Assembly: GCA_964187785.1 (NCBI GenBank)
Contig: OZ076409.1
Location: 75,456,001 to 75,520,000, forward strand
DNA: 64,000 nt
Source: Amphiscolops sp. MND2022
Lineage: Eukaryota
Reading direction: 5' to 3'
Shown here piece by piece: positions 1 through 54,749 of the stretch. The number at the start of each line of letters is the position of its first letter. The stretch's first letter is position 1. Both the position numbers and the translations under genes were made by a program. A model generated the notes under the pieces. That model ran no database searches and was not told the DNA's origin. It saw nothing but the letters and a program-made list of their open reading frames with translations.

Positions 1-949
1 CCCGTTACCCCTTGGGACCGGAAATGACCGTTATGTGGGTAAAATTGCAATTTTCATACTTTTTCAAGTGTATTTAGGTGCGGAAGGAGTGGTAATAGGT
101 GCTTGGACACTATATGAGGTAAGGGAGGACGTGAGGCGAGCATTCGGAAATAACCGTTATGTTGACCCTAAAGTCCCCCTGGTACCGTAAACGACCGGAA
201 ATGGTCAAATTTTGTGTCTATTGGGTACAAATGTTTTGTATTTTGTAGATAAAAGTATCTATTAGGTGTTTCGACGGTTTGCAGTAGTGAACATAGTCAT
301 GAAACCTTGTGGGGGGTAACGGTATATAGCACCGGAAGTCAAACCGTTGGAGACAGGATAGGTTTTTTGGTTTTAAAATGTCTTTCGGCGTAATTTTTTC
401 GACTCTTGTGGACTATTTTTAAAAATTAAAGTTTTTCCATATAGTTTCAGAGACTCCGAAACCTCAACCAACATAACCGTTACCTTATGATAGCCTTTCA
501 AGTTGGCCTGGTGTCAACTTGGAAGCGCTATCCTTCTGAAATCGTTAATCAAGAGTGTTTTTGGGTAGGTATATATTGCATTAGTACCAATTAGAGCTTC
601 ATCAACAGTGTATCAACGACAAAAACTATGCCGTCATGATTCCGTTATCAGAATCATAGTGAGCAAATTGTTGAAAAAAATGGTTTTTTCCATACAAAAT
701 GTGTCCTAAATGCCAGGAAACCTATTTACCTAACAAATGGTATTAATTGGAATGTTTGTAACAGATTTATAAAAGTTCAAATTGAATATTACATTTCATT
801 ATGGAAGCTGAAACGTCATATTTTAGTTTAATTAACGTCAACGCCACACACTTTACATCAACGCACACCGTCTGTGGGCATGCCGAGGCATGCCCTTCGA
901 CGACGTATACCAAATACATACCTAACGACGCCCGTACATCCCGGGCTAG
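1..949 (+). mobile_element. Cassette type B, 5'-partial
   Basis: GATAGCC palindrome 489-532, end hairpin 876-895, ends CCCGGGCTAG. Confidence 0.75.
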
Positions 950-982
950 GTGCGGGGGGGTAACCCCAACAAAATTTTTGGA

Positions 983-1006
983 GGATTCGGGTAGGGTCCT
1001 GAATCC
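983..1006 (+). other. Representative 5' stem-loop with TAGGGT loop
   Basis: GGATTCGGG-TAGGGT-CCTGAATCC; equivalent structure with different stems in types A-F. Confidence 0.8.
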
Positions 1007-2461
1007 GATTTTGACTCTAATAGCTATCGATAGGAAATCTTGCAAAAATTTCGGGATCTCGTGATCTAACCATAGGATTTTAAAGTTGGAGCGGCCCCCA
1101 CCAGATTTTCCGAAAATTAGCGCCCCCCACCGGGTTCCATACCCCGGAAAATTTTTTTCTGGCCACACGGGCGACCGTTAGGGGGTCATTTTAGGGGTAA
1201 AATTCATATTGGGCCACATAACTTTTTTTCTGTTGATTTAAAACTTTGGGACCCTGCTAAAAGTTTCTTGACCGTGTTGCAGTGGCTCCGGAGGTCCAAA
1301 CCAAATTTTTCTATCTTGAAGCTATCTCCAAGTACCCCCCCGCTCAAACCGTTATTTTTCCGGAAACGCAGGTTTTTGACCCGGAAGGAGTCGTCTGAGC
1401 GCGGGGTCGTTAGGTGATGTTTTGGGGACGACCTTGAGACGAAGTGGGGGACATGTAGTTTGCCAACCTCAGTTTACCCCCCGGACGGGAAATGACCGTT
1501 ATATGAGCGGCAAAAATGTCCCCCTCCACGTTTTACCGCTATTTCCGGTGTGAAGGAGTGGGAGTAGCGCGTCGGGTGCCATATATCAAAAGTAGGTTTA
1601 GACAAGGATCTATCGGAAACATGTAGTTTGGGACCCCCTGGACCAACCCGTTAGCAGGAAATGGGGCTTCCGGCCCGTTTTTTTACGGTTAAAAACGGAA
1701 AATGGGCATTGAGGGGTAAATATCTCGTGAACGCGTGGAGCTACGGTGTCCTTCACCACTACAAGGTTTCATACCCATGATATGGTGCCTTCAGGGGGGC
1801 AAACAGATTTCCGCTATCTATCACCGTTACGGACTTGGCCCCCCAGCCTAACCGCTAAGTGACCGGAAATGTCACTTTTTGAGCCCAAAGGGTCGGTCCC
1901 AGCCAGGGAACGTTAGGTAACTTATTGTAGTACTCATTGAGATGAGTTGGGGGACATAGTTTCAGTCACCCCCCGTTACCCCTTGGGACCGGAAATGACC
2001 GTTATGTGAGTAAATTTGCCATTTTTGTCCTATTTGAAGGGCATTTAGATGCGGAAGGAGTGGTAATAGGTGCTTGGACACTATATGAGGTAAGGGAGGA
2101 TATGAGGCGAGCATTCGGAAATAACCGTTATGTTGACCCCAAAGTCCCCCTGGTACCGTAAACGACCGGAAATGGTCAAATTTTGTGGCCATTGGGTACA
2201 AATGTTTGGTATTTTGTAAATAAAAGTATCTATTAGGTGTTTCGACGGTTTGCAGTAGTGAACATAGTCATGAAACCTTGTGGGGGGTAACGGGGTATAT
2301 AGCACCGGAAGTCCAAACCGTTGGACACAGGATAGGTTTTTGGTTTGAAAATGTCTTTCGGCGTACTTTTGTCGACTATTATGGACTATTATTAAATATT
2401 AAAGTTTTTCCATATAGTTTCAGAGACTCCGAAACCTCAACCAACATAACCGTTACCTTAT

Positions 2462-2505
2462 GATAGCCTTTCAAGTTGGCCTGGTGTCAACTTGGAAGGG
2501 CTATC
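2462..2505. repeat. Representative B/C/D/E-type long palindrome
   Basis: GATAGCCTTTCAAGTTGGC...GTCAACTTGGAAGGGCTATC, 44 nt. Confidence 0.9.
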
Positions 2506-2921
2506 CTTCAAAACTCGTTAATCAAGTGTGTTTTTGGGTATGTTTTTATCATTTTAGAATCAATTAAAGCTCCAAGAAAAGTTTGCCAACGACAAAAACT
2601 ATGTCGTGATGATTCCGTTATTAGAATGATGGTTAACAAAATGTTGATAAAGTTAATTTTTTACCTTTCAAATGTGTCCTAAAAGCCAGAAACTCTCTTT
2701 ACCAAAAAAATGGTTTTGATTGAATTGTATATAACAGGTAATAAAAGTTCAAATTGATTATTACGTTTCATTATTCAAGCTAAAACTTCATAACATAGTT
2801 TAATTAACGTCAACGCCACACACTTTACATCAACGCCCATCGTCTGTGGGCATGCCGAGGCATGCCCTTCGACGACATATACCAAATACATACCTAACGA
2901 CGCCCGTACATCCCGGGCTAG

Positions 2922-4207
2922 GTGCCGGGATTTCTATTCGATAAAGTATGTGGCGCGTGTGGGTAGGGTCCCTGGCGCGCTCTTGGGTATGGTGTTCACC
3001 AGCTAGGAAATAGGGGTCGATTTTTCGGGATCTCCTAAACTAGCCACACGATTTGGCTGAAATTTGGCACACGTACTCCCCTCGGCATGGTGAAGATGAT
3101 TTCCTACTGACGTTTTTCCCGCAAAATTTTTTTTGTTGTCCAAAATAACGGTTTTTGGGGTAAAATTTTGAACTTTTTTTAAATTTCATCTTATATCTCG
3201 CCACGGGTTTACGCTAGCGCTTCCAAACCCTGCTAAAGAAAGCTTGCAAACTGTCTCAGGAATGTGGTGTGAAATTTTCAGCTCAATCGGACTCAAACTC
3301 GGGGAGATATAGCGTTTTTCCGGAGCGGGGGGGTTTCATTTTTCTAACGGTCCAGCTTATCTTAGCCATTTTTTCGAAAATGTACTCGCCTAAAGACCTC
3401 CCCTGGCCGGTTTTATTCCCAACAAAACCATTTGGCCCTAAATACGGAGTTTCAGCGTTCCAGCATTCCCGGGCGAAAAGTTGTGGGACTTAGAAAAGTT
3501 CAAAAATTTTCAAAAATTTTTTTTTCCGTTTTCCGCCCTCCCCCCCTAGGGGAAAAGACCCCCCAACCAGTAATTTGAGTGAATTCATGTGGAAAGGCCA
3601 TGTTTAGAGGAGAAAAATACCGTTTAGATCGTCTTTTTATCTTGGCTCAACGTTGACTTATGACGTTTTGAAGGTGATGTTTGGAGGTGTAAAGCACGTG
3701 AATAGTAAACGTTATGAGTATTTATCTGATCTGAAAGCCATTGAGATGCAATATGGTTTGCTCAAAACGTAATTCATGGCAGTTTGGCAATCAATCAACA
3801 CCCTTTGTTGTCGTTTGACATACTTTTTTGTTGTTATAATAAAAAATTTTGTGTTTTTATTCATTTTTTTCTCATCAAATAACTTGAAACAGTTGAGTAC
3901 ATTCCATCCCCCCTTCCGGGGGAGATGAGAATGTACTCGCAAAAAGCACCGAACTACGGCCCTTACCTTCCCGAGCTACGCAGTATAAGGATTACACATT
4001 GGTTCCGACATTTTCATAGAGTTATATCTTGGTAATCTGTCTGGATATGCAGAAAAATCAGCACGTGCTTTTTTATACCAAGTTGCTCACATCGACATTT
4101 ATTTTATATCAACGCCCCCATATTTATCAACGCCCCCCGTCCGTGGGCATGCCGAGGCATGCCCTTCGACGACGTATACCAAGATATGTTCGAGCGCGTT
4201 AGCCTAG
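2922..4207 (+). mobile_element. Cassette type A1 (1286 bp)
   Basis: Starts GTGCCGGGATT, GAGTACATT palindrome 3895-3938, ends GTTAGCCTAG. Confidence 0.75.
3895..3938. repeat. Representative A-type long palindrome
   Basis: GAGTACATTCCATC...GATGAGAATGTACTC, 44 nt, in all complete A units and a variant in G. Confidence 0.9.
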
Positions 4208-4210
4208 GTG
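4109..4210 (+). other. Representative conserved end module plus junction
   Basis: TCAACGCC at 4109 and 4127; GGGCATGCC-GA-GGCATGCCC 4145-4164; TTCGACGACGTAT; CTAG|GTG 4204-4210. Confidence 0.9.
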
Positions 4211-5476
4211 GCCGTGTCTTTTCGACGTGCTTTTGCATCGAGGAGTGGGTAGGGCCCCGCGACGACCTAGAAGAATTGGATGCTCACCGAAACGTGCAGA
4301 ATTCTACGAGATCTCATAGTTTGAGCCATACGATTTTGCTGAAATTTGGCATGTGGCCTGGAATTGGTGAGTAGGTAAAACGTGTAGGAGGTGATTTTTC
4401 CCAAATTCCACTCTGAGACGAGATATGGGCAAATAACGGTCCCAAAAATGGCAAAATTGCACTTTTTTCAACTTTGTCAGCCCATATCTCGTTCCCAGGT
4501 GCCCGGAGCGGGACGCGTTAAGCTGATTATAAACTCTAGGGTGTTGAGGCGGTACGGTGAACTTTGGCCCGTTCCGATCGGACTTGTAGTCTTGGAGAAA
4601 TAACGGTATTTTTGGGAAATTTTTTCTAACGGTCCAGCTTATCTTTGCCATTTTTCGAAAATGTACTCGCCTAAAGGCCTCCCCCTGGCCGAATTTACTC
4701 CCAGCAAAACCATTTGGCCCTAAATACGGAGTTTCAGCGTTCCAGCATTCCCGGGCGAAAAGTTGTGGGACTTGGAAAAATTTCAAAAATTTTCAAAATT
4801 TTTTTTTACGTTTTCCGGGCCCCCAATGAAGGGGAAACGACCCCCCAACCCTTATTTTGAGTGAATGCATGTGGAAAGGCCATGGTTAGAGGAGAAAAAT
4901 GCCGTTTAGATTGTCTTTCTATTTTAACTTGACATTGACTTATGACGTTTTGAATGTGATGTTAGGATGTGTGAGGCATGTGAAAAGTTGATGTTTTGAG
5001 TCTTTATCTCATATGAAAGCAATTGAGATGCACGCTGTCCTGCTCAAAACGTCTTCCGTTGTAGTTTTCCAGTGCACCAGAACCCTTTGGTGTCATTTGA
5101 ACATACTTTTCTTCGGTTTATTAACATTTTTAATGTATTTATTCCAATTTTTATTATCTTATAGCTCAAAACAGTTGAGTACATTTCATCTCCCTTTCGG
5201 GGGAGATGAGAATGTACTCGCTAAAGACCTAGCGCCATGACCAAAATTTGAAGCGCACGTTTTGTATCTTCTTACAGACTTGTTTTTGTATTTTTTCGGA
5301 TTTTTCTAAAAAATAATAATATACTTGAAATACATTACTTGACTTTACTACTACATTCCACCTCCAACGTCAACGCCCCCCTGCTTGCATCAACGCCCAC
5401 CGTCCGTGGGCATGCCGAGGCATGCCCTTCGACGACGTATGCCAAATGCCCAGTGCCACGCAGTCATTTTCGCTAG
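4208..5476 (+). mobile_element. Cassette type A2 (1269 bp)
   Basis: Starts GTGGCCGTGTC, ends CATTTTCGCTAG. Confidence 0.75.
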
Positions 5477-6745
5477 GTGGCCGTGTCTTTTCGACGTGCT
5501 TTTGCATCGAGGAGTGGGTAGGGCCCCGCGACGACCTAGAAGAATTGGATGCTCACCGAAACGTGCAGAATTCTACGAGATCTCATAGTTTGAGCCATAC
5601 GATTTTGCTGAAATTTGGCATGTGGCCTGGAATTGGTGAGTAGGTAAAACGTGTAGGAGGTGATTTTTCCCAAATTCCACTCTGAGACGAGATATGGGCA
5701 AATAACGGTCCCAAAAATGGCAAAATTGCACTTTTTTCAACTTTGTCAGCCCATATCTCGTTCCCAGGTGCCCGGAGCGGGACGCGTTAAGCTGATTATA
5801 AACTCTAGGGTGTTGAGGCGGTACGGTGAACTTTGGCCCGTTCCGATCGGACTTGTAGTCTTGGAGAAATAACGGTATTTTTGGGAAATTTTTTCTAACG
5901 GTCCAGCTTATCTTTGACATTTTTCGAAAATGTACTCGCCTAAAGGCCTCCCCCTGGCCGAATTTACTCCCAGCAAAACCATTTGGCCCTAAATACGGAG
6001 TTTCAGCGTTCCAGCATTCCCGGGCGAAAAGTTGTGGGACTTGGAAAAATTTCAAAAATTTTCAAAATTTTTTTTTACGTTTTCCGGGCCCCCAATGAAG
6101 GGGAAACGACCCCCCAACCCTTATTTTGAGTGAATGCATGTGGAAAGGCCATGGTTAGAGGAGAAAAATGCCGTTTAGATTGTCTTTCTATTTTAACTTG
6201 ACATTGACTTATGACGTTTTGAATGTGATGTTAGGATGTGTGAGGCATGTGAAAAGTTGATGTTTTGAGTCTTTATCTCATATGAAAGCAATTGAGATGC
6301 ACGCTGTCCTGCTCAAAACGTCTTTCGTTGTAGTTTTCCAGTGCACCAGAACCCTTTGGTGTCATTTGAACATACTTTTCTTCGGTTTATTAACATTTTT
6401 AATGTATTTATTCCAATTTTTATTATCTTATAGCTCAAAACAGTTGAGTACATTTCATCTCCCTTTCGGGGGAGATGAGAATGTACTCGCTAAAGACCTA
6501 GCGCCATGACCAAAATTTGAAGCGCACGTTTTGTATCTTCTTACAGACTTGTTTTTGTATTTTTTCGGATTTTTCTAAAAAATAATAATATACTTGAAAT
6601 ACATTACTTGACTTTACTACTACATTCCACCTCCAACGTCAACGCCCCCCTGCTTGCATCAACGCCCACCGTCCGTGGGCATGCCGAGGCATGCCCTTCG
6701 ACGACGTATGCCAAATGCCCAGTGCCACGCAGTCATTTTCGCTAG
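5477..6745 (+). mobile_element. Cassette type A2 (1269 bp)
   Basis: Near-identical to 4208-5476. Confidence 0.75.
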
Positions 6746-8013
6746 GTGGCCGTGTCTTTTCGACGTGCTTTTGCATTGAGGAGTGGGTAGGGCCCCGCGA
6801 CGACCTAGAAGAATTGGATGCTCACCGAAACGTGCAGAATTCTACGAGATCTCATAGTTTGAGCCATACGATTTTTCTGAAATTTGGCATGTGGCCTGGA
6901 ATTGGTGAGTAGGTAAAACGTGTAGGAGGTGATTTTTCCCAAATTCCACTGTGAGACGAGATATGGGCAAATAACGGTCCCAAAAATGGCAAAAATGCAC
7001 TTTTTTCAACTTTGTCAGCCCATATCTCGTTCCCAGGTGCCCGGAGCGGGACGCGTTAAGCTGATTATAAACTCTAGGGTGTTGAGGCTGTACGGGGAAG
7101 TCAGGCCCGTTCCGATCGGACTTGTAGTCTTGGAGAAATAACGGTATTTTTGGGGAACCTTTTCTAACGGTCCAGCTTATCTTTGCCATTTTTTCGAAAA
7201 TGTACTCGCCTAAAGGCCTCCCCCTGGCCGAATTTACTCCCAGCAAAACCATTTGGCCCTAAATACGGAGTTTCAGCGTTCCAGCATTCCCGGGCGAAAA
7301 GTTGTGGGACTTGGAAAATTTTCAAAAATTTTCAAAAATTTTTTTTTCGTTTTCCGGGCCCCCAATGAAGGGGAAACGACCCCCCAACCAGTATTTTGAG
7401 TGAATTCATGTGGAAAGCCCTTGTTTTGACGAGAAAAGTACCGTTTAGAACATCTTTCTATCTTGACTCAACGTTGACTTATGACGTTTTGAATGTGATG
7501 TAAGGATGTAGGAGGCATGTGATAAGTTGATGTTTTGAGTCTTTATCTCATATGAAAGCGGTTGAGATGCAAGCTGTCCTGCTCAAAACGTCTTTCGTTG
7601 TAATTTTCCAGTGCACCAATACCCTTTGGTGTCATATAAACATACTTTTCGTCGATATATTAACAATTTTAATGTATTTATTCCAATTTTTATTATCTTT
7701 TAACTCAAAACAGTTGAGTACATTTCATCTCCCTTTCGGGGGAGATGAGAATGTACTCGCTAAAGACCTAGCGCCATGACCGAAAGTTTGAAACCCACGT
7801 TTTTTATCTTCTTACAGACTTGTTTTTGTATTTTTTCGGAATTTTTTAAAAGTTAATATACTTGAAATACATTACTTGACTTTACTACTACAATCCACCT
7901 CCAACGTCAACGCCCCCTTGCTTGCATCAACGCCCACCGTCCGTGGGCATGCCGAGGCATGCCCTTCGACGACGTATGCCAAATGCCCAGTGCCACGCAG
8001 TCATTATCGCTAG
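6746..8013 (+). mobile_element. Cassette type A2 (1268 bp)
   Basis: Starts GTGGCCGTGTC, ends CATTATCGCTAG. Confidence 0.75.
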
Positions 8014-9300
8014 GTGCCGGGATTTCTATTCGTTCGAGTATGTGGCGCGTGTGGGTAGGGCCCCTGGCGCGCTCTTGTGTTTGGGGGTTTCCTACTTCTA
8101 AATCACGTTCAGATTTCCGGGATCTCGTAAACTATCCATACGATTTGGCTGAAATTTGGCACACGTACCCCCCTCGGCACGGTGAAGATGATTTCCTTCT
8201 GACGTTTTTCCCGCTAAACATTTTTTGTTGACCAAAATAACGGTTTTTGGTGGAAAATTTTTGATTTTTTTTAAATTTTATCCTATATCTCGCCACGGGT
8301 CCACGCTAGCGCTTCCAAACCTTGCTGACGAAACCTCGCAAACTGTCTCAGGAATGCTGTGTGAAATTTTCAGCTCAATCGGACTTAAACTCGGGGAGAT
8401 ATAGCGTTTTTCCGGAGCGGGGGGGTTTCATTTTTCTAACGGTCCAGCTTATCTTTGCCATTTTTTCGAAAATGCACTCGCCTAAAGGCCTCCCCTGGCC
8501 GGTTTTACTCCCAAAAAAACCATTTTGCCCTAAATACGGAGTTTCAGCGTTCTAGCATTCCGGGGCGAAAAGTTGTGGTACTTAGTAAATTTCAAAAATT
8601 TTCAAAATTTTTTTTTTCGTTATTTGGGCCCCCAAAGTGGGGGAAAAGACCCCCCAACCAGTAATTTGAGTGAATTCATGTGGAAAGGCCATGTTTAGCG
8701 GCGAAAAATGCTTTTTAGATCGTCTTTTTATTTTAACCTGTTGTTGACTTATGTTGTTTTGAAGGTGATGTTTGGATGTGTGAAGCATGTGAAAAGGTAA
8801 TTTTTTGTGTCTTTATCTCTTCTAAAAGCCATTGAGATGCAATCTGTTTTGCTCAAAACGTAATTCAATGCAATTTGGCAGTCAATGAACACAATTTGGT
8901 GTCTTTTGTTATATTTTTCTGTTGATATAATAAAAAATTTTGTGTCTTTATTAATTTTTTTTAAATAAAATAACTTGAAACAGTTGAGTACATTCCATCC
9001 CCCCTTCCGGGGGAGATGGAAATGTACTCGCTAAAAGCCGCGAACAAGAGCCCATACCTTCCTGCGCTACGCAGTATAAAGATTGCATGTTGGTTCCGAC
9101 TTTTTGGTAGTGTTATATCTTGGTAATTTGACTGAATATGGAGAAAAATCAGCAAGTGCTCTTTTATAGCAAATTGCTGACAACGACAATTTTTTTATAT
9201 CAACGCCCCCATATTTATCAACGCCCCCCGTCCGTGGGCATGCCGAGGCATGCCCTTCGACGACGTATACCAAAATATGCGTTAGCGCGGTAGCCGCTAG
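8014..9300 (+). mobile_element. Cassette type A1 variant (1287 bp)
   Basis: Starts GTGCCGGGATT, ends GGTAGCCGCTAG. Confidence 0.75.
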
Positions 9301-10585
9301 GTGCCGGGATTTCTATTCGTTCGAGTATGTGGCGCGTGTGGGTAGGGCCCCTGGCGCGCTCTTTTATTTCGGGTACACCTACTCCAAATTCACGATGTGA
9401 TTTCGACGATCTCGTAAACTAGCCACACGATTTGGCTGAAATTTGGCACACGTACCCCCCTCGGCACGGTGAAGATGATTTCCTACTGACGTTTTTCCCG
9501 CTAAACATTTTTTGTTGACCAAAATAACGGTTTTTGGGGTAAAATTTTCAACTTTTTTTAAATTTTATCTTATATCTCGCCACGGGTACACGCTAGCGCT
9601 TCCAAACCTTGCTGACGAAAGTTTGCAAACTGTCTCAGGAATGCTGTGTGAAATTTTCAGCTCAATCGGACTTAAACTCGAGGAGATATAGCGTTTTTCC
9701 GGAGCGGGGGGGTTTCATTTTTCTAACGGTCCAGCTTATCTTTGCCATTTTTTCGAAAATGCACTCGCCTAAAGGCCTCCCCTGGCCGGTTTTATTCCCA
9801 GCAAAACCATTTGGCCCTAAATACGGAGTTTCAGCGTTCCAGCATTCCCGGGCGAAAAGTTGTGGGACTTAGAAAATTTCAAAAATTTTCAAAAATTTTT
9901 TTTCCGTTATTTGGGCCCCCAAAGTGGGGGAAAAGACCCCCCAACCAGTAAAGCAAGTGAATGCATGTGCAAAGCCCTTGTTTAGAGGAGAAAAATGCCG
10001 TTTAGAACGTCTTTTTATCTTGGCTCAACGTTGACTTATGACGTTTTGAAGGTGATGTTTGGAGGTGTAAATCACGTGAATAGTAAACGTTATGAGTATT
10101 TATCTGATCTGAAAGCCATTGAGATGCAATATGGTTTGCTCAAAACGTAATTCATGGCAGTTTGGCAATCAATCAACACCCTTTGTTGTCGTTTGACATA
10201 CTTTTTTGTTGTTATAATAAAAATTTTGTGTATTTGTTCATTTTTTTCTCATCAAATAACTTGAAACAGTTGAGTACATTCCATCCCCCCTTCCGGGGGA
10301 GATGAGAATGTACTCGCAAAAAGCAGCGAATTACGGCCCTTACCTTCCCGAGCTACGCAGTATAAGGATTACATATTGGTTCCGACATTTTCATAGAGTT
10401 AAATCTTGGTAATCTGTCTGGATATGCTGAAAAATCAGCACGTGCCTTTTAATACCAAGTTGCTCACAACGACAATTATTTTATATCAACGCCCCCATAT
10501 TTATCAACGCCCCCCGTCCGTGGGCATGCCGAGGCATGCCCTTCGACGACGTATACCAAGATATACATCGAGCGCGTTAGCCTAG
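9301..10585 (+). mobile_element. Cassette type A1 (1285 bp)
   Basis: Starts GTGCCGGGATT, ends GTTAGCCTAG. Confidence 0.75.
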
Positions 10586-11873
10586 GTGCCCGGATTTCTA
10601 TTCGATAAAGTATGTGGCGCGCCTTGGGTAGGGTCCCTTGCGCGCTTTTGGGTATGGTGTTCACCAGCTAGGAAATAGGGGTCGATTTTTCGGGATCTCC
10701 TAAACTAGCCACACGATTTGGCTGAAATTTGGCACACGTACTCCCCTCGGCACGGTGAAGATGATTTCCTACTGACGTTTTTCCCGCAAATTTTTTTTTG
10801 TTGTCCAAAATAACGGTTTTTGGGGTAAAATTTTGAATTTTTTTCAAATTTTATCTTATATCTCGCCACGGGTTTACGCTAGCGCTTCAAAACCCTGCTA
10901 AAGAAAGCTTGCAAACTGTCTCAGGAATGCGGTGTGAAATTTTCAGCTCAATCGGACTCAAACTCGGGGAGATATAGCGTTTTTCCGAAGCGGGGGGGTT
11001 TCATTTTTCTAACGGTCCACCTTATCTTTGCCATTTTTTCGAAAATGCACTCGCCTAAAGGCCTCCCCTGGCCGGTTTTATTCCCAGCAAAACCATTTGG
11101 CCCTAAATACGGAGTTTCAGCGTTCCAGCATTCCCGGGCGAAAAGTTGTGGGACTTAGAAAATTTCAAAAATTTTCAAAAAATTTTTTTTCGGTTTTCCG
11201 CCCTCCCCCCCGAGGGGAAAAGACCCCCCAACCAGTAATTTGAGTGAATTCATGTGGAAAGGCCATGTTTAGAGGAGAAAAATCCCATTTAGATCGTCTT
11301 TTTATCTTTATTCAACGTTGACTTATGACGTTTTGAAGGTGATGTTTGGAGGTGTGAAGCACGTGAAAAGTAAACGTTATGAGTATTTATCTGATCTGAA
11401 AGCCATTGAGATGCAATCTGTTTTGCTCAAAATGTAATTCATTTCTGTTTGGTAGTCAATCAACACCCTTTGTTGTCATTTGACATCTTTTTTTGTTGAT
11501 ATAAGAAAAAATTTCGTGTATTTATTCATTTTTTTCTCATCAAATAACTTGAAACAGTTGAGTACATTCCATCCCCCCTTCACGGGGGAGATGAGAATGT
11601 ACTCGCAAAAAGCCCCGAACTACGGCCCTTACCTTCCTGAGCTACGCAGTATAAAGTTTGCATATTGGTTCCGACATTTTGATAGAGTTATATCTTGGTA
11701 ATCTGTCTGGGTATGCAGAAAAACCAGCACGTGCTTTTTTATACCAAGTTGCTCACAACGACATTTATTTTATATCAACGCCCCCATATTTATCAACGCC
11801 CCCCGTCCGTGGGCATGCCGAGGCATGCCCTTCGACGACGTATACCAAGATATGTTCGAGCGCGTTAGCCTAG
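10586..11873 (+). mobile_element. Cassette type A1 (1288 bp)
   Basis: Starts GTGCCCGGATT, ends GTTAGCCTAG. Confidence 0.75.
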
Positions 11874-13843
11874 GTGCGGGGGGGAAACCCCATCCCTTAT
11901 CTTGGAGGATTCGGGTAGGGTCCTGAATCCGATCTTAGTTCGCCCAGCTCTCAGTAGAAATCTGGGAAATTTTTTGCGATCTCGTGATCTAACCATAGGA
12001 TTTTAAAGTTGGAGCGGCCCCCACCAGATTTTCCAAAGTTATTCGCCCCCCACCGGGTTCCAGCGTGATTGAAATATTTTGACGGGGTACACGGGCGACC
12101 GTTAGGGGTCATTTTGGGGGTAAAATTTATATCCGGTCGCATAACTTTTTTCCTGTTGGATTAAAACTTTGGGACCCTACTAAAAGTTTCTTGACCGTGT
12201 TGCGGGGGCTCCGGAGGTCCAAACCAAATTTTTCTATCTTGAAGCTATCTCCAAGTACCCCCCCGCCCAAAACGTTATTTTTCCGGAAACGCAGGTTTTT
12301 GACCCGGAAGGAGTCGTCGGAGCGCGGGGTCGTTAGGTGATGTATTGGGGACGGCCTTAAGACGAAGTGGGGGACATGCAGTTTGCCAACCCCAGTTTAC
12401 CCCCCGGACGGGAAATGACCGTTATATGAGCGGGAAAAATGCCCCCCTCCACGTTTTACCGCTATTTCCGGTGTGAAGGAGTGGGAGTAGCGCGTCGGGT
12501 GCCATATATCAAAAGTAGGTTTGAACAAGGAACTATCGGAAACATGTGGTTTGGGACCCCCTGGACCAACCCGTTAGCGGGAAATGGGGCTTCCGCCTCC
12601 TTTTTTTACTGCTAAAACAGTAAAATGGGCATTGAGGGGTAAATATCTCGTGAACGCGTGGAGCAATCGTGTCCATCACTACTACAAGGTTTCATACCCA
12701 TGATATGGTGCCTTCAGGGGGGCAAACAGATTTCCGCTATCTATCACCGTTACCGACTTGGCCCCCCAGCCTAACCGCTATGTGACCGGAAATGTCACTT
12801 TTTGAGCCCAAAGGGTCGGTCCCAGCCGGGGAACGTTAGGTAAATTATTGTAGTACTCAATGAGACGAGTTGGGGGATATAGTTTCAGTCACCCCCCGTT
12901 ACCCCTTGGGACCGGAAATGACCGTTATGTGGGTAAAATTGCAATTTTTATACTTTTTCAAGTGTATTTAGGTGCGGAAGGAGTGGTAATAGGTGCTTGG
13001 ACACTATATGAGGCAAGGGAGGACGTGAGGCGAGCATTCGGAAATAACCGTTATGTTGACCCTAAAGTCCCCCTGGTACCGTAAACGACCGGAAATGGTC
13101 AAATTTTGTGTCTATTGGGTACAAATGTTTAGTATTTTGTAGATAAAAGTATCTATTAGGTGTTTCGACGGTCTGCAGTAGTGAACATAGTCATGAAACC
13201 TTGTGGGGGGTAACGGTATATAGCACCGGAAGTCCAAACCGTTGGTGACAGGATAGGTTTTTTGGTTTTAAAATGTCTTTCGGCGTACCTTTGTCGACTA
13301 TTAAGGACTATTTTTAAAAATTAAAGATTTTCCATATAGTTTCAGAGACCTCGAAACCTCAACCAACATAACCGTTACCTCATGATAGCCTTTCAAGTTG
13401 GCCTGGTGTCAACTTGGAAGGGCTATCCTTCAAAAATCGTCAATCAAGTGTGTTTTTGGGTATGTTTGTATCATTTTAGAATCAATTAGAGCTTCAAGAA
13501 AAGTTTCCCAACAACAAAAACTATGTCGTGAAGATTCCGTTACTAGAATTATAGTTAGCAAATTGTTGAGAAAATTTTTTTTTCCAAATTAAATGTGTCC
13601 TAAATGCCAGGAAACCTATTTTACTAACAAATGGTATTGATTGGAATGTATGTAACAGATTTATAAAAGTTCAAATTGATTATTAGGTTTCATTATGGAA
13701 GCTGAAACGTAATATTTTAGTTTAATTAACGTCAACGCCACACACTTTACATCAACGCCCACCGTCTGTGGGCATGCCGAGGCATGCCCTTCGACGACGT
13801 ATACCAAATACATACCTAACGACGCCCGTACATGCCGGGCTAG
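11874..13843 (+). mobile_element. Cassette type B (1970 bp)
   Basis: Starts GTGCGGGGGG, GATAGCC palindrome, ends GCCGGGCTAG. Confidence 0.75.
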
Positions 13844-15815
13844 GTGCGGGGGGGAAACCCCATCCCTTATCTTGGAGGATTCGGGTAGGGTCCTGAATCC
13901 GAGTTCAGTGCCGCCAGCTCTCAGTAGAAATCTGGGAAATTTTTTGCGATCTCGTGATCTAACCATAGGATTTTAAAGTTGGAGCGGCCCCCACCAGATT
14001 TTCCAAAGTTATTCGCCCCCCACCGGGTTCCAGCGTGATTAAAATATTTTGTCGGGGTACACGGGCGACCGTTAGGGGTCATTTTAGGGGTAAAATTTAT
14101 ATCCGGTCGCATAACTTTTTTCCTGTTGGTTTAAAACTTTGGGACCCTGCTAAAAGTTTCTTGACCGAGTTGCGGTGGCTCCGGAGGTCCAAACCAAATT
14201 TTTCTATCTTGAAGCTATCTCCAAGTACCCCCCCGCCCAAACCGTTATTTTTCCGGAAACGCCGGTTTTTGACCCGGAAGGAGTCGTCTGAGCGCGGGGT
14301 CGTTAGGTGTTGTTTTGGGGACGGCCTCGAGACGAAGCGGGGGATATATAGTTTGCCGACCCCAGTTTACCCCCCGCACGGGAAATGACCGTTATATGAG
14401 CGGGAAAAATGCCCCCCTCCACGTTTTACCGCTATTTCCGGTGTGAAGGAGTGGGAGTAGCGCGTCGGGTGTTATATAACAAAAGTAGGTTTAGACAAGG
14501 ACCTATCGGAAACATGTAGTTTGGGACCCCCTGGACCAACCCGTTAGCGGGAAATGGGGCTTCCGCCTCCTTTTTTTACTGCTAAAACCGTAAAATGGGC
14601 ATTGAGGGGTAAATATCTCGTGAACGCGTGGAGCAATCGTGTCCATCACTACTACAAGGTTTCATACCCATGATATGGTGCCTTCAGGGGGGCAAACAGA
14701 TTTCCGCTATCTATCACCGTTACCGACTTGGCCCCCCAGCCTAACCGCTATGTGACCGGAATTGTCACTTTTTGAGCCCAAAGGGTCGGTCCCAGCCGGG
14801 GAACGTTAGGTAACTTATTGTAGTACTCAATGAGACGAGTTGGGGGATATAGTTTCAGTCACCCCCCGTTACCCCTTGGGACCGGAAATGACCGTTATGT
14901 GGGTAAAATTGCAATTTTTATACTTTTTCAAGTGTATTTAGGTGCGGAAGGAGTGGTAATAGGTGCTTGGACACTATATGAGGTAAGGGAGGACGTGAGG
15001 CGAGCATTCGGAAATAACCGTTATGTTGACCCTAAAGTCCCCCTGGTACCGTAAACGACCGGAAATGGTCAAATTTTGTGTCTATTGGGTACAAATGTTT
15101 AGTATTTTGTAGATAAAAGTATCTATTAGGTGTTTCGACGGTCTGCAATAGTGAACATAGTCATGAAACCTTGTGGGGGGTAACGGGGTATATAGCACCG
15201 GAAGTCCAAACCGTTGGACACAGGATAGGTTTTTGGTTTGAAAATGTCTTTCGGCGTACTTTTGTCGACTATTATGGACTATTATTAAAAATTAAAGTTT
15301 TTCCATATAGTTTCAGAGACTCCGAAACCTCAACCAACATAACCGTTACATTTTGATAGCCTTTCAAGTTGGCCTGGTGTCAACTTGGAAGCGCTATCCT
15401 TCTGAAATCGTTAATCAAGAGTGTTTTTGGGTAGGTATATATTGCATTAGTACCAATTAGAGCTTCATCAACAGTGTATCAACGACAAAAACTATGCCGT
15501 CATGATTCCGTTATCAGAATCATAGTGAGCAAATTGTTGAAAAAAATGGTTTTCTCCATACAAAATGTGTCCGAAATGCCAGGAAACCTATTTACCTAAC
15601 AAATGGTATTAATTGGAATGTATGTAACAGATTTATAAAAGTTCAAATTGAATATTACATTTCATTATGGAAGCTGAAACGTCATATTTTAGTTTAATTA
15701 ACGTCAACGCCACACACTTTACATCAACGCCCACCGTCTGTGGGCATGCCGAGGCATGCCCTTCGACGACGTATACCAAATACATACCTAACGACGCCCG
15801 TACATCCCGGGCTAG
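13844..15815 (+). mobile_element. Cassette type B (1972 bp)
   Basis: Starts GTGCGGGGGG, ends CCCGGGCTAG; its 3' part matches the partial unit at 1-949. Confidence 0.75.
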
Positions 15816-17196
15816 GTGGCGGGGGTGCCTCATGCCCCTCAAAAAATCACGAGCGCGGGTAGGGTCCTGCGCGAGTTCAAGAAGTGAAACATCGATATTT
15901 CGAAGCAACACTTTTGGAAGCTATCTTTTTATTGAACCATACGATTTGAACCATTTTTTGCATGTGGCTTTGGAATCAGGTTATAAGAACTTTTTCCTGC
16001 TGACAGTTTAACCGGAAATCATTTGGTGTTGACTTTTGGCCAAAAAACCGGTTATAACGTCGAAAATCAACGTTATATCCGAATTGTCGTCGTAACTTTT
16101 TTCCAGGGCGTCCTAGCGATTTTTGTTGCTCCTACATTGCGTTGCAGCATGTGAAAATACATCTGCTGTGAAATTTTGGTTGCAATCGGATCACCCCCCT
16201 CCGAGATTGAGGGGTACCCCCCTCCAATTTTACCCCCAAAATTTAGGAAAATGCCAATTTTGAGCATGAAGCTGTGGATTGAGCGTGTCCGCACCCTGCT
16301 GAAGGATTGTCGGGCGCATTAAGGTGAATCCGATGACATTTGTAGTTATCACGCCCAACCCCCCCTGGGACCGGAAATGACCCTTTTTTGTGTATTTTGA
16401 CAGGAAGTTGTGATTTTCAGTCGTAAGACGTTGTTTTATGTACGCTTTACAGGGTATCAAAGTTGAAACACAGCATGAGAACAACTTAGTGACCACATTG
16501 TGGCCAGTCGGGGGTAACGTAATTACCGGAAATAGGGTCGAAACCCCCCAAAATTGATGATTTTTGTCCATTATGACTCGTTTATTGATCACGTATAGGT
16601 CCGATAGGTCTCATTAACTATTGTCAAGATGAACAGCTGATCAATTAACGAAGTCTTAACGACGCTTTCAGAAACCGGAAGTTACCCCCTCGACCGGAAG
16701 TGGTCCAATTTGACCGGAAATGGTGCGAAAAATAGATCAAAAACGTCTTTTTTGTTTAATTTCTGTATACTTCGACAGATATTTTTGAAATTTTGAAGGT
16801 TGTGGTTGAAAGAAGGATTAAAAGACTGAATCGCTGCAGAATGATGATCACCTTTGTCACCCCCCGATAGCCTTCCAAGTTGACTTTGGGTCAAGCTTGA
16901 AGGCTATCTGTTATGAAAACAAAAAACAAAGCAGAACCCCCTGTCCCCGTGGTTGTTAAATTCTGCTTAGATCAGTTCAATGCAGAGAGTACTTTGGTTA
17001 AGGTAAACAAATAGCGTTACTTTTACGTTTCTTATAGTTGTTCACCCCCACCCGCCAAAATTTCATGCATCTCCCCCCTCAGTACAACGCCACATAGCGT
17101 TTCGACGCCCACGGTCTGTGGGCATACCGAGGCATGCCCTTCGACGACATATGCCAAATGAGCCTTTCCCGCACTCTGGAGTGCGGTAGCAGCTAG
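15816..17196 (+). mobile_element. Cassette type C, single copy (1381 bp)
   Basis: Starts GTGGCGGGGG, GATAGCC palindrome 16866-16908, perfect tail hairpin CCGCACTC-TG-GAGTGCGG 17169-17186, ends AGCAGCTAG; body related to type D. Confidence 0.75.
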
Positions 17197-19190
17197 GTGC
17201 GGGGGGGAAACCCCAACTTTTTTCTTGGAGGAATCGGGTAGGGTCCTGATTCCGAGTTGAGTGCCGCCAGCTATCGTTAAAAACCTATACCTTTTAAACC
17301 CGATCTCGGGAACTAACCATGCCCCTTCTTTAATTTTTTGGCCCCCACTCACTTTTTGAGAGTAGATCGCCCCCCACTGGGTTCCAAGTTGGGCAAAAAT
17401 GGAGGTCATGGGTAACGGGGACCGTTAAGAGGTAACTCAGGGGGTAAAATTTATTTTTTGCGTCATATCTTTTCCCCCCGTGGACTTAGCGCTTCCGGTC
17501 AGCAGACAAAACCTCATGTACGTAATAAGGGGCCTCCAAAGGTCCAAACAAAATTTTTCTATCATGCACCGTTACGGACTTGCCCCCCCGGCCCAACCGT
17601 TATTTTACCGGAAATTGCACTTTTTGACCGGGAAGGAGTCGTCTGAGCGCGGGGTCGTTTGGTAATGTTTTGTAGAGCTTCTGGAGACGTGTTGGGGGAC
17701 ATGTAGTTTGCCGACCCCAGTTTACCCCTCGGACGGGAAATGACCGTTATGTGAGTTTTAAAATTGCCCCCTTCAATTTTCCCCGTTATTTCCGGTGTGA
17801 AGGAGTGGGAGTAGGGTGTCGGGTGCCATATATCAAAAGTAGGTTTAGACAAGGACCAACCGGAAACTTGTGGTTTGGGACCCCCTGACCCAACCCGTTA
17901 GCCGTTATTAGGGTGATTGCCTCCTTTTTTTGCTGTCAAAACCGGAAAACGGGCATTGAGGGGTAAATATCTCGTGAACGCGTGGAGCAATCGTGTCCAT
18001 CACTACTACAAGGTTTCATACCCATGATATGGTGCCTTCAGGGGGGCAAACAGACTACCGCTATCTATCACCGTTACGGACTTGGCCCCCCAGCCCAACC
18101 GCTATGTGACCGGAAATTGCACTTTTTGAGCCCAAAGGGTCGGTCCCAGCCTGGGAACGTTAGGTAACTTATTGTAGTACTCATTGAGACGAGTTGGGGG
18201 ATATAGTTTCAGTCACCCCCCGTTACCCCTTGAGACCGGAAATGACCGTTATGTGAGTAGAATTGCAATTTTTGTCCTATTTGGAGGGCATTTAGGTGCG
18301 GAAGGAATGGTAATAGGTGCTTGGACACTATATGATGTAATGGAGGTCGTGAGGAGAGCATTCGGAAATAACCGTTATGTTGACCCCAAAGTCCCCCTGG
18401 TACCGTTAACGACCGGAGATGGCCAAATTTTGTGTTTGTAGGGTACAAATGTTTGGTATTTTATGGATAAAAGTACCTGGAAGGTGTTTTAAAGGCCTCC
18501 AGAAGTGAACATAGTCATGAAACCTTGTGGGGGGTAACGGTATTTAGCACCGGAAGTCCAAACCGTTGGTCACAGAATAGGTTTTTTGGTTTCAAAATGT
18601 CTTTAGGCGTAGTTTTGTGGGTTGAATCGTCATAATATCAACTAATACGGACTTTTTTGGGAAATAAAATTTTTCCACATTAGTTTCAGGGACCTCCAAT
18701 GCTTCAGTCAACATAACCGTAACATTTTGATAGCCTTTCAAGTTGACCTGGTGTCAACTTGGAAGGGCTATCCTTCTGAAATCGTTAATCAAGAGTGTTT
18801 TTGGGTAGGTATATGTTGCATTAGTACCAATTAGAGCTTCATCAACAGTTTGCCAACGGCAAAAACAATGTCGTGATAATTCCGTTATAAGAATAATAGT
18901 TAACAAATTGTTTACGAAGTTGATTTTTTCCATTAAAAATGTGTCCTAATGCCACCAAATTGAATAAAATAATAAATGGTAATGACTAAAACTAAATAAC
19001 ATTTAAAAAGAAGCTCAATATTTTAATAGGTCTCATTATGGAAGCTGTAATCTCACGTTTTAACTTAATTAACGTCAACGCCACATACTTCACATCAACG
19101 CCCACAGTCCGTAGGCATGCCGAGGCATGCCTTTCGACGACGTATACCAAATTCCTTTAACACAACACCCCCGAGCGCGGTAGCCGCTAG
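17197..19190 (+). mobile_element. Cassette type B, divergent (1994 bp)
   Basis: Starts GTGCGGGGGG; end hairpin variant AGGCATGCC-GA-GGCATGCCT; ends GGTAGCCGCTAG. Confidence 0.75.
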
Positions 19191-20476
19191 GTGCCGGGAT
19201 TTCTATTCGATAAAGTATGTGGCGCGCCTTGGGTAGGGTCCCTTGCGCGCTCTTGGGTATGGTGTTCACCAGCTAGGAAATAGGGGTCGATTTTTCGGGA
19301 TCTCCTAAACTAGCCACACGATTTGGCTGAAATTTGGCACACGTACTCCCCTCGGCACGGTGAAGATGATTTCCTACTGACGTTTTTCCCGCAAAATTTT
19401 TTTTGTTGTCCAAAATAACGGTTTTTGGGGTAAAATTTTGAATTTTTTTTAAATTTTATCTTATATCTCGCCACGGGTTTACGCTAGCGCTTCAACACCC
19501 TGCTAAAGAAAACTTGCAAACTGTCTCAGGAACGCGGTGTGAAATTTTCAGCTCAATCGGACTTAAACTCAGGGAGATATAGCGTTTTTCCGGAGCGGGG
19601 GGGTTTCATTTTTCTAACGGTCCAGCTTATCTTTGCCATTTTTTTCGAAAATGCACTCGCCTAAAGGCCTCCCCTGGCCGGTTTTATTCCCAGCAAAACC
19701 ATTTGGCCCTAAATACGGAGTTTCAGCGTTCCAGCATTCCCGGGCGAAAAGTTGTGGGACTTAGAAAATTTCAAAATTTTTCAAAATTTTTTTTTTCCGT
19801 TTTCCGCCCTCCCCCCCTAGGGGAAAAGACCCCCAACCAGTAATTTGAGTGAATTCATGTGGAAAGGCCATGTTTAGAGGAGAAAAATACCGTTTAGATC
19901 GTCTTTTTATTTTAACCTGTCGTTGACTTATGACGTTTTGAAGGTGATGTTTGGAGGTGTGAAGCACGTGAAAAGTAAACGTTATGAGTATTTATCTGAT
20001 CTGAAAGCCATTGAGATGCAACCTGTTTTGCTCAAAACGTAATTCATATCCGTTTGGTAGTCAATCAACACCCTTTGTTGTCATTTGACATCTTTTTTTG
20101 TTGATATAAGAAAAATTTTGTGTATTTATTCATTTTTTTCTCATCAAATTACTTGAAACAGTTGAGTACATTCCATCCCCCCTTCTCGGGGGAGATGAGA
20201 ATGTACTCGCAAAAAGCCCCGAACTACGGCCCTTACCTTCCTGAGCTACGCAGTATAAAGATTGCATATTGGTTCCGACATTTTGATAGAGTTATATCTG
20301 GGTAATCTGTCTGGGTATGCAGAAAAACCAGCACGTGCTTTTTTATACCAAGTTGCTCACAACGACATTTATTTTATATCAACGCCCCCATATTTATCAA
20401 CGCCCCCGTCCGTGGGCATGCCGAGGCATGCCCTTCGACGACGTATACCAAGATATGTTCGAGCGCGTTAGCCTAG
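19191..20476 (+). mobile_element. Cassette type A1 (1286 bp)
   Basis: Starts GTGCCGGGATT, ends GTTAGCCTAG. Confidence 0.75.
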
Positions 20477-21745
20477 GTGGCCGTGTCTTTTCGACGTGCT
20501 TTTGCATTGAGGAGTGGGTAGGGCCCCGCGACGACCTAGAAGAATTGGATGCTCACCGAAACGTGCAGAATTCTACGAGATCTCATAGTTTGAGCCATAC
20601 GATTTTGCTGAAATTTGGCATGTGGCCTGGAATTGGTGAGTAGGTAAAACGTGTAGGAGGTGATTTTTCCCAAATTCCACTGTGAGACGAGATATGGGCA
20701 AATAACGGTCGCAAAAATGGCAAAAATGCACTTTTTTCAACTTTGTCAGCCCATATCTCGTTCCCAGGTGCCCGGAGCGGGACGCGTTAAGCTGATTATA
20801 AACTCTAGGGTGTTGAGGCTGTACGGGGAAGTCAGGCCCGTTCCGATCGGACTTGTAGTCTTGGAGAAATAACGGTATTTTTGGGGAACCTTTTCTAACG
20901 GTCCAGCTTATCTTTGCCATTTTTTCGAAAATGTACTCGCCTAAAGGCCTCCCCCTGGCCGAATTTACTCCCAGCAAAACCATTTGGCCCTAAATACGGA
21001 GTTTCAGCGTTCCAGCATTCCCGGGCGAAAAGTTGTGGGACTTGGAGAATTTTCAAAAATTTTCAAAAATTTTTTTTTTCGTTTTCCGGGCCCCCAATGA
21101 AGGGGAAACGACCCCCCAACCAGTATTTTGAGTGAATTCATGTGGAAAGCCCTTGTTTTGACGAGAAATGTACCGTTTAGAACATCTTTTTATCTTGACT
21201 CAACGTTGACTTATGACGTTTTGAATGTGATGTAAGGATGTAGGAGGCATGTGATAAGTTGATGTTTTGAGTCTTTATCTCATATGAAAGCGGTTGAGAT
21301 GCAAGCTGTCCTGCTCAAAACGTCTTTCGTTGTAATTTTCCAGTGCACCAATACCCTTTGGTGTCATATAAACATACTTTTCGTCGATATATTAACAATT
21401 TTAATGTATTTATTCCAATTTTTATTATCTTTTAACTCAAAACAGTTGAGTACATTTCATCTCCCTTTCGGGGGAGATGAGAATGTACTCGCTAAAGACC
21501 TAGCGCCATGACCAAAAGTTTGAAACCCACGTTTTTTATCTTCTTACAGACTTGTTTTTGTATTTTTTCGGAATTTTTTAAAAATTAATATACTTGAAAT
21601 ACATTACTTGACTTTACTACTACAATCCACCTCCAACGTCAACGCCCCCTTGCTTGCATCAACGCCCACCGTCCGTGGGCATGCCGAGGCATGCCCTTCG
21701 ACGACGTATGCCAAATGCCCAGTGCCACGCAGTCATTATCGCTAG
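20477..21745 (+). mobile_element. Cassette type A2 (1269 bp)
   Basis: Starts GTGGCCGTGTC, ends CATTATCGCTAG. Confidence 0.75.
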
Positions 21746-23030
21746 GTGGCCGTGTCTTTTCGACGTGCTTTTGCATTGAGGAGTGGGTAGGGCCCCGCGA
21801 CGACCTAGAAGAATTGGATGCTCACCGAAACGTGCAGAATTCTACGAGATCTCATAGTTTGAGCCATACGATTTTTCTGAAATTTGGCATGTGGCCTGGA
21901 ATTGGTGAGTAGGTAAAACGTGTAGAAGGTAATTTTTCCCAAATTCCACTGTGAGAGGAGATATGGGCAAATAACGGACCCAAAAATGGCAAAAATGCAC
22001 ATTTTTCAACTTTGTCAGCCAATATCTCTTTTCCAGGTGCCCGTAGCGTTCCGCACGTGGACATCAATATTGCTCAGCGCTGTTGGAGGAGTGCGTGGAC
22101 AAATTTTGGTTTAAATCGGACTTAAACTTGACGAGAAATTAACGGTTTTTTGGGCGTTTCCGGGGTAAATTTTTTAACGGTCCAGCTTATCTTTGCCATT
22201 TTTTCGAAAATGTACATGCCTAAAGGCCTCCCCCTGGCCGAATTTACTCCCAGCAAACCCATTTGGCCCTAAATACGGAGTTTCAGCGTTCCAGCATTCC
22301 GGGGCGGAAAGTTGTGGGACTTGGAAAAATTTCAAAATTTTTTCAAAAATTTTTTTTCCCGTTTTCCGGGCCCCCAATGAAGGGGAACGACCCCCAAACC
22401 AGTATTTTGAGTGAATTCATGTGGAACGCCCATGTTTGGAGGAGAAAAATGCCGTTTAGCACATCTTTTTATCTTAACTTGACATTGACTTATGACGTTT
22501 TGAATGTGATGTTAGGATATATGAAGCATGTTAAAAGTTGAAGTTTTGAGTCTTTATCTCATCGGAAAACCATTGAGATACAAGCAGTTTTGCTAAAAAC
22601 GATTTTCATTGTAGGTTAGCAGAGTATTAGTACACTTTGATGTCATTTGAGTATTTTTTTCTTCTATATAATAACTGTTTTTATGTATTTATTCCAATTT
22701 ATCTCATCTCATTTTAACATCAAGCAGTTGAGTACATTTCATCTCCCTTTCGGGGGAGATGAGAATGTACTCGCTAAAAACCTAATGCTATGGCGCCAAT
22801 GTTTGGATGGGAAGTTTTCTATGCTTTGAAAAAAGTTATTTTTAATTACTTGATTTTTTAAAACAATAATTAACATGAAGTACATTACTTGCTCCTACTA
22901 CTACCACCATACATCTCTAACGTCAACGCCCCCTGCTTGCATCAACGCCCCATCGTCCGTGGGCATGCCGAGGCATGCCCTTCGACGACGTATGCCAAAT
23001 GCCCAGTGCCACGCAGTCTTTCCCCGCTAG
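21746..23030 (+). mobile_element. Cassette type A2 variant (1285 bp)
   Basis: A2 head, divergent interior, ends TTTCCCCGCTAG; close to 42733-44013. Confidence 0.75.
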
Positions 23031-54600: not shown

Positions 54601-54749
54601 TTACCCCCTCTGACTCAACTATAGCATGTACGTAATGAAACCAATAACACCTTCAACTGTTAATCAACGCCCACCGTCCGTAGGCATGCCGAGGCATGCC
54701 TTTCGACGACGCGCGCCGGAAACAATCTATCGGCGCCACCCGCTTCTGG
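51679..54749 (+). mobile_element. Cassette type F, single copy with unique cargo (3071 bp)
   Basis: Starts GTGGTCAG, 5' stem-loop 51708-51739, B-like block near 52141, end hairpin 54682-54701, ends CTGG. Confidence 0.7.
52790..54620. other. Non-repetitive AT-rich cargo inside cassette F, possibly decayed coding sequence
   Basis: No similarity seen to other units; lacks the ACCGGAA/poly-C/poly-G texture of the array; only short interrupted frames; boundaries approximate. Confidence 0.55.

Follow-up and report, generated by a model that had tools for sequence, protein, structure and literature searches.

The question raised by this locus is what role is played by the short palindrome that recurs at the ends of its repeat units, which palindrome a sequence-only reading had taken for an iteron-flanked stem-loop origin of rolling-circle replication. 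The stretch of DNA analysed, hereafter the window (64 kb; 1..64000), is, according to unit clustering, a mixed head-to-tail array on the + strand containing 44 complete units, which fall into 11 families when clustered at 80% identity. The coordinates given below are mainly those of a non-autonomous unit of 1286 bp (2922..4207, + strand, by unit segmentation) that carries the palindrome and ends at the element junction CTAG|GTGG (4204..4211, + strand, established from empty sites), where the 3' end of one unit meets the 5' start of the next. A sequencing run of small share mapped to parts of the window only, no RNA run being among those listed. Since the longest ORF in the window measures 162 aa from stop to stop, we assign no coding role to these units; units of 4.76 kb (L001, L002) and of 3.07 kb (window 51679-54749) were also observed, large and likewise without long ORFs.

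Upon scanning the window for GGCATGCC-NN-GGCATGCC with up to three mismatches, we found 46 matches, all on the + strand, where 0.14 were expected, and none of 100 shuffled sequences attained that number. All but one of the 46 are terminal, lying 44–59 nt upstream of a junction that reads CTAG|GTG in 44 instances and CTGG|GTG in one, so that the earlier statement of a palindrome at 45 unit ends was accurate, and its position 40–60 nt from the junction was correct as a range. The remaining match (59364..59383, +, window scan) is an internal, degenerate module with C changed to T in both arms; no junction follows it, and a full module stands 198 nt further on. In the 1286-bp unit the core palindrome, GGGCATGCC-GA-GGCATGCCC (4145..4164, +, from the window scan and the fold as single-stranded DNA), is predicted to form a stem of 8 bp closed by a 4-nt loop, and the extension of that stem by CGTC and GACG, which tetranucleotides had been pointed out before and do flank the core upstream and downstream in 43 of the 46 modules, appears in the best fold and only partly in the centroid.

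Conservation is not confined to this 20-mer, continuing for about 17 nt on its upstream side and about 13 nt on its downstream side, and the entire conserved 3' module, as delimited by column conservation, comprises about 52 nt from the proximal TCAACGCC to TTCGACGACGTAT (4127..4178, +). Over 100 context clusters its columns are mostly 80–100% conserved (90–100% in the core) versus 30–50% in the spacer behind, which contrast between module and spacer speaks for a function of the module; the conservation above the flanking sequence that the sequence-only reading implied is present. Its further claim that this was the best-conserved sequence of the window also stood, in that the 18-mers common to all 11 families lie exclusively within the module, though the types across which the claim was made number 11 at 80% identity and not nine. 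The two repeats said to precede the palindrome fared less well: the distal copy of TCAACGCC (4109..4116, +, context alignment) is variable, and of the 46 modules 27 have an exact pair, 14 a single exact copy and five no exact copy, with a start-to-start spacing of 18–20 nt wherever there is a pair. Motifs of the form AYGCC recur in approximate helical phase, at −35, −16, +3, +13, and +30. As a separate observation, most of the 1.3-kb units contain a second long inverted repeat (window 3895-3950), the matching arms of which are separated by a short loop, situated about 260–310 nt before the unit end.

The window is part of an array in G000:C1 with limits near 70.455 Mb and 76.487 Mb, a span of about 6 Mb in one orientation that may be continuous, given that 9/11 samples of 3 kb and 4/4 of 10 kb taken between those limits bore units. 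Block duplication and rolling-circle concatemers were considered as the main builders of such arrays and rejected: at an identity of at least 98% we counted 4 of 117 adjacent pairs, and of 84 non-adjacent pairs only one had the same next neighbor (null, 1.2%). Because near-identical units are scattered, the arrays are likely to grow one insertion at a time; at the same time, adjacent units of the same family (40/105 versus a null of 27, in a count that missed some junctions) point to some local copying within the array. The last units, moreover, were 72–82% like their best match in four of six arrays and the first units 93–99% in six of six, which values hint at a growth of the arrays in front of older founders.

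All 203 junctions examined start with GTG, a triplet that the search pattern required and that the empty sites confirm, while the 3' ends read CT[A/G/T/C]G, with CTAG or CTGG in most units and CTTG and CTCG occurring as well. A solo copy within a Gypsy element is a precise insertion of 1256 bp without duplication, the empty site of which, CTTG|GTCC, was found in all nine of the other Gypsy copies read; and at another locus (L331) one unit had been interrupted by separate insertions at two places, behind CTTG and behind CTGG, the homolog of that doubly hit unit in the window retaining the unbroken site (4021..4050, +, alignment to L331). Among 817 starts of one abundant type, 798 follow CTAG, 16 follow CTGG, CTTG, or CTCG, and three are not preceded by G, two of which three are not elements; the first 100 of the 798 CTAG-preceded starts listed are all within two arrays. 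At 15 ends without a downstream element the next bases were GT (10), TT (3), AT (1), and GA (1). The target is therefore CTNG|[G/T]T, which sequence is rebuilt at each junction without target-site duplication. Inasmuch as the genome should by expectation offer about 3.7 million sites of this kind, whereas 261 of 277 module contexts, sampled mainly from arrays, have another unit next, the insertion is likely to be steered by more than those four bases, or else the solo copies are purged.

At the opposite end, every one of 179 units contains a hairpin with the loop [G/T]AGGG[T/C/G] about 31–62 nt from its GTG start, exemplified by that of the 1286-bp unit (2953..2980, +, fold) and by that of a 2-kb unit with the same loop and another stem (983..1006, +, fold). 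The stems vary among families yet pair: in 26 distinct arm sets, uncorrected for kinship, the arms folded with their own partners at −7.7 kcal/mol versus −5.4 kcal/mol when swapped (0/20000 permutations). The fold is weak (−2.2 kcal/mol) in one abundant family.

The enzyme to which these ends belong was recognized in a 13.7-kb unit of another array, whose ORF of 2373 aa matches in Pfam Helitron_like_N, PIF1, and, weakly, GIY-YIG (hereafter RepHel). Its predicted Rep domain (pLDDT 87.5) had Helraiser (7lcc) as the sole Foldseek match (E 3e-6), with a Z of 16.5, an rmsd of 3.5, and 16% identity over 247 aligned residues; the motifs FxTxTxN, HxH, YxxxY, and Walker A are present, and motif 2 reads EFQ..GN.xHxH where the genome's other Helitrons have RG. 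With a 300-aa query we obtained 136 matches in the genome after scoring 131 of 400 candidates, and the breadth of the lineage shows in 405 representatives with E values no higher than 0.001. At least 34 matches, 30–89% identical to the query, lie in C1 between 70.5 and 76.5 Mb, all on the strand of the window, and 27 of them have open frames of at least 2200 aa. Eight of ten RepHel units from that array end in the module followed by CTAG|GTG and two lack the module, while seven of nine checked upstream start at CTAG|GTG with the 5' hairpin, the two other starts being beyond the sequence read. The RepHel leader is 78–98.5% identical to window units, in one instance 98.5% over 741 nt; the module is also found in RepHel elements that are only 30–41% identical to the query, and is situated downstream of the RepHel gene, on the CTAG side. 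The non-autonomous units thus share both ends with the RepHel elements, and their Helitron-like identity is a near certainty. Accordingly, the part of the sequence-only reading that made the module a cis site of a rolling-circle (HUH/Rep) enzyme was upheld by this sharing of array, ends, and 5' leader, although the origin role was not.

Some further features of the RepHel elements were recorded. A second ORF of about 280–440 aa is present downstream in several of them (L022:5224-6390 on the − strand, L057-L058, L071-L072, and others), and the one that was scanned had no Pfam match. In two families RepHel is split at the same place, just inside the helicase, one ORF having about 1690 aa and the other about 592 (L055:2706-9583, L065:2770-9608), with frames of 1682 and 1694 aa recurring in several copies. 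In L021 a tandem repeat of about 76 nt immediately follows the gene, about 8200–8780 from the unit start. Additional RepHel clusters occur at G000:C2:102.0-103.9 Mb, C3:2.4-3.9 Mb, and C9:3.4 Mb; the samples from C2 and C9 have the same junctions, with both orientations being represented across the C2 cluster.

Whether the module acts as a single-stranded hairpin was approached through its variants. In the genome (eukaryotic, 1.07 Gb) the 18-nt core occurs without mismatch 4998 times, distributed over many arrays and some solo copies. The form in which the outer G-C pair is replaced by A-T, which had been reported at two positions of the window and was confirmed at both by the window scan (19113..19132, and 54682..54701 in a 3071-bp unit ending CTGG; both +), accounts for 686 of those copies and for all eight of the module-bearing RepHel elements seen. 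It was thus correctly described as a pair replacement, though it is not a rare one: an A in the outer pair is accompanied by T in 686 copies and by another base in two. This almost perfect coupling, however, involves bases only 19 nt apart that are co-inherited as one linked haplotype and may go back to a single event, and since such bases travel together the swap is weak proof of pairing. Two other compensatory variants, at the pairs 4:17 and 5:16, were both in internal, non-terminal copies. Mismatches of the outer pair comprised 13 G..T versus one A..C, and the changes leaving G.T on the + strand outnumbered their mirror images 58 to 15 genome-wide, background changes being strand-symmetric; but 35 of the 58 copies carry C14T, 33 of these from two amplified families, and once they are removed the bias (23 versus 15) is not significant, for which reason we dropped it as strong proof of a hairpin. 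The covariation that the sequence-only reading led one to expect was recovered in the coupled outer pair, there as one haplotype, and in the 4:17 and 5:16 variants. What these variants provide is modest support for a role of the + strand module as a hairpin in single-stranded DNA.

The module, moreover, is probably dispensable. Described earlier as universal, which it is within the window, it is lacking in 18 of 179 array units drawn from the window and other loci, those 18 having several end types and including an intact 13.7-kb RepHel element; 3 of the 11 RepHel elements examined are without it. No 3' hairpin takes its place, the best 30-nt window folding at −0.4 to −4.1 kcal/mol versus about −10 kcal/mol, and the module-less units nonetheless have precise ends. 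Relic modules are located 230–650 nt inside the present end of some elements. A search for such relics in the module-less units gave 36 hits, of which the two in such units were one missed junction and one partial end. In other organisms, a degenerate form of the 20-mer was sought in about one third of the metagenome contigs and returned 121 loci, none with the module context. One metagenome contig (L163) contains three GC-rich core-like palindromes paired with GTA(C/G)-led hairpins and without Helitron context, which palindromes resemble bacterial REP sequences.

We consider it probable that the module is the conserved subterminal 3' palindrome of non-autonomous elements in a divergent Helitron-like lineage, and that it signals rolling-circle copying to stop. 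The junction sequences by themselves leave the moved strand unfixed, so that for placing the module on the stop side, with the GTG end as the start, we reason by analogy from Helraiser and IS91. In Helraiser, according to the available part of PMC4778049, activity requires the left end, while the 3' hairpin acts as a terminator that can be dispensed with, about 9% of the activity remaining once it is lost; in IS91, as far as the available text of PMC13181058 describes, insertion takes place beside CTTG at the origin end oriIS, without duplication, and a palindrome stands beside the terIS cut, CTCG. Under that polarity RepHel would nick CTNG^GTG adjoining the 5' hairpin and peel off the + strand, the module hairpin would slow the enzyme, and a cut at the next CTNG would free a circle. 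Each junction would recreate CTAG|GTG beside a resident 5' hairpin, and new copies would land singly at existing junctions, thereby giving rise to mixed arrays of one orientation. The start of the next unit in an array could likewise end the copying, which possibility would explain how some families manage without the module. Against the stop signal speak the self-palindromic arms and the 10-bp repeat, features that a terminator does not need, the precise ends of the units that have no 3' hairpin, and the distance of the module from the end, 44–59 nt versus 10–12 nt for HLE1 hairpins.

Those same arms are what would be expected if the 20-mer were instead a double-stranded site for a host protein, namely, a p53-family response element, which alternative, judged from the sequence, we regard as unlikely. 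Being placed about 50 bp before the start of the next element in arrays or circles, such a site could switch on RepHel, or set the time of its expression, once DNA has been damaged, or else attract the transposase. A 10-bp period and arms that are themselves palindromic are typical of p53 sites, the variable outer bases correspond to the R and Y of the consensus, and the genome has a gene with a p53 domain (E 6.6e-38); when compared with the consensus RRRCWWGYYY as given in the available part of PMC7498329, both main forms match it twice in 19 of 20 positions with no spacer. The consensus would nevertheless accommodate G..T and A..C equally, yet the former outnumbers the latter 13 to 1, and the conserved sequence overruns the 20-mer on both sides, by the lengths given above. 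In addition, one RepHel family has C changed to T in the core of the second half-site of its terminal module (two of nine copies were checked as terminal), and the spread of that family to nine copies makes a p53 requirement less likely; among the papers listed by a literature search there was no Helitron case. A tandem repeat of p53 fragments (G000:C2:2332300-2360600; L318-L321) proved unrelated to the Helitron units; it is homogeneous, with periods of 1.24 and 1.89 kb that are 92–98% identical and contain broken p53-domain fragments.

The reading from which the question arose, that the module is a Rep-binding origin composed of iterons and a stem-loop from which copying would proceed on the − strand starting at the CTAG end, is in our estimation less probable still. 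It can claim that the module is the best-conserved sequence in the window and persists in RepHel elements of 30–41% identity to the query, that the AYGCC motifs are roughly in phase, that direct repeats beside a hairpin make up the pMV158 origin (PMC10288648, available part), and that some HLE2 elements have reversed layouts (PMC11417382, available part). An origin, however, must be present, and the module is absent from the 18 units and the three RepHel elements mentioned; between it and the junction lies an unconserved stretch whose length differs by up to 15 nt, no more than 27 of 46 modules have an exact distal repeat, and it is the other end that has the ever-present covarying hairpin, within about 750 nt common to the RepHel elements. 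With the module on the CTAG side, at a varying distance, dispensable, and often devoid of the upstream TCAACGCC, the iteron-plus-stem-loop origin was not borne out, and the 5' hairpin is likely the better candidate. Least probable of all, in our view, is that the module has no present function and was spread by the swapping or capture of 3' ends among array elements. The self-repair of palindromes can yield symmetric changes in the absence of selection, and the module-less families do transpose, the bypass of an end being known in Helitrons (PMC4778049, available part); captured ends, though, would carry the spacer along, and the spacer is 30–50% conserved as against 90–100% for the module core.

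Returning to the stop signal, we join it to the remaining results in a broader account that we put forward tentatively, as a possibility rather than as a probability: that these elements constitute a third Helitron-like lineage with an IS91-style target, for which the starts of relatives serve as landing pads, so that megabase arrays accumulate before their founders, and in which the 3' palindrome is a terminator and perhaps also a p53 site. If that were true, a third lineage would be widespread, with a GN-type Rep motif and often a C-terminal GIY-YIG; dozens of enzymes 30–40% alike would use one junction and build integron-like arrays of one orientation; and the start of a neighbor could take the place of a terminator, while the terminator hairpin might also serve the host's p53 as a site. 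The self-targeting would represent a route from a transposon to a satellite-like chromosome domain, which domain might be a safe harbor. The ends and the target fit neither of the described Helitron classes, and for that reason search tools based on TC..CTRR or on inverted repeats would miss the element. With RepHel genes that are intact, ends that are defined, and a target of four bases, the origin, the termination, and the choice of target can be put to direct test, those being open points for all Helitrons save Helraiser, and an enzyme that inserts precisely before a defined landing site has a potential use in site-directed integration.

Within the genome itself, a quick unrooted tree of 49 rows, which has long branches and no curated references and from which 11 picked rows were dropped, separated 10 array and 29 database proteins from 10 RG-type Helitrons of this genome with a support of 94, and so suggests that the RepHel of the units lies outside the genome's HLE1- and HLE2-type Helitrons; these latter (L295-L305), including the DUF6570-bearing HLE2 type, have long open frames and are dispersed. 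In the literature covered, to which few subscription journals and neither Repbase nor Dfam belonged, we found no account of such ends and arrays. The comparison with described systems, which follows the available portions of the papers cited, reveals that the units resemble HLE1 elements and Helraiser in having a Y2 Rep and a Pif1 helicase in one ORF (PMC4778049, PMC11417382, PDB 7lcc), in most units a 3' CTAG or CTGG, a dispensable upstream palindrome, no target duplication, and a head-to-tail junction. HLE1 elements, however, start with TC, insert between A and T, and end in CTRR with a hairpin about 10–12 nt upstream (PMC5148889), whereas the array units start with GTG at all 203 junctions, insert after CTNG, have their 3' hairpin at 44–59 nt or none, and possess a second hairpin at their 5' end; and their RepHel replaces the Q.RG.xHxH of HLE1 motif 2 with EFQ..GN.xHxH and in many members carries a C-terminal GIY-YIG, unlike HLE1.

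With HLE2 elements, or Helentrons, the units have in common the hairpins at one or both ends and the 5' stem-loop (PMC11417382, PMC5148889), as well as, in some database relatives, an OTU domain, and proto-Helentrons, as described in the same two papers, also end in CTAG. HLE2 elements are nevertheless defined there by a terminal inverted repeat that is asymmetric and 11–18 nt long, by DUF6570, and by a T|T or T|C target. Such a repeat was present in none of 179 units when the first 60 nt were compared with the last 150 (control, 7), Pfam found DUF6570 in 0 of 17 array RepHel proteins versus 6 of 8 other Helitrons of this genome, and the units insert at CTNG|[G/T]T and not between T and T or C.

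The target finds its nearest counterpart in IS91, which in the available text of PMC13181058 has the tetranucleotide CTTG at its starting end and the related CTCG at its own end, with palindromes at both ends and no duplication, the origin end of our units being assigned by analogy. IS91 is prokaryotic and free of helicase, while the array RepHel is eukaryotic, fused to PIF1, and about 2350 aa long, and the part of that paper available mentions no multi-megabase self-stacking. Replitrons (PMC10288648, available part) are likewise HUH transposons, and one short sequence recurs at their two boundaries, but they have a Y1 Rep and no helicase where the array RepHel combines a Y2 Rep with a Pif1 helicase, and the boundary tetranucleotides of our units, unlike theirs, often differ. 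The third clade of Helitrons from Paramecium, compared by description only from the accessible text of PMC13085455, also falls outside HLE1 and HLE2, inserts with a site bias and in one orientation, and has many non-autonomous copies and several alternative right ends, although its members end in CCAA and insert in telomeric repeats. Finally, exact side-by-side insertion is recorded for head-to-tail pairs of unlike Helitrons in maize and for tandem Helitrons in the centromeres of bats and plants (PMC2267711, PMC5148889, available parts); whereas those cases consist of one pair or of a series of like copies, the present genome has about 5000 units with the module, which belong to many families and are placed nearly all at junctions.
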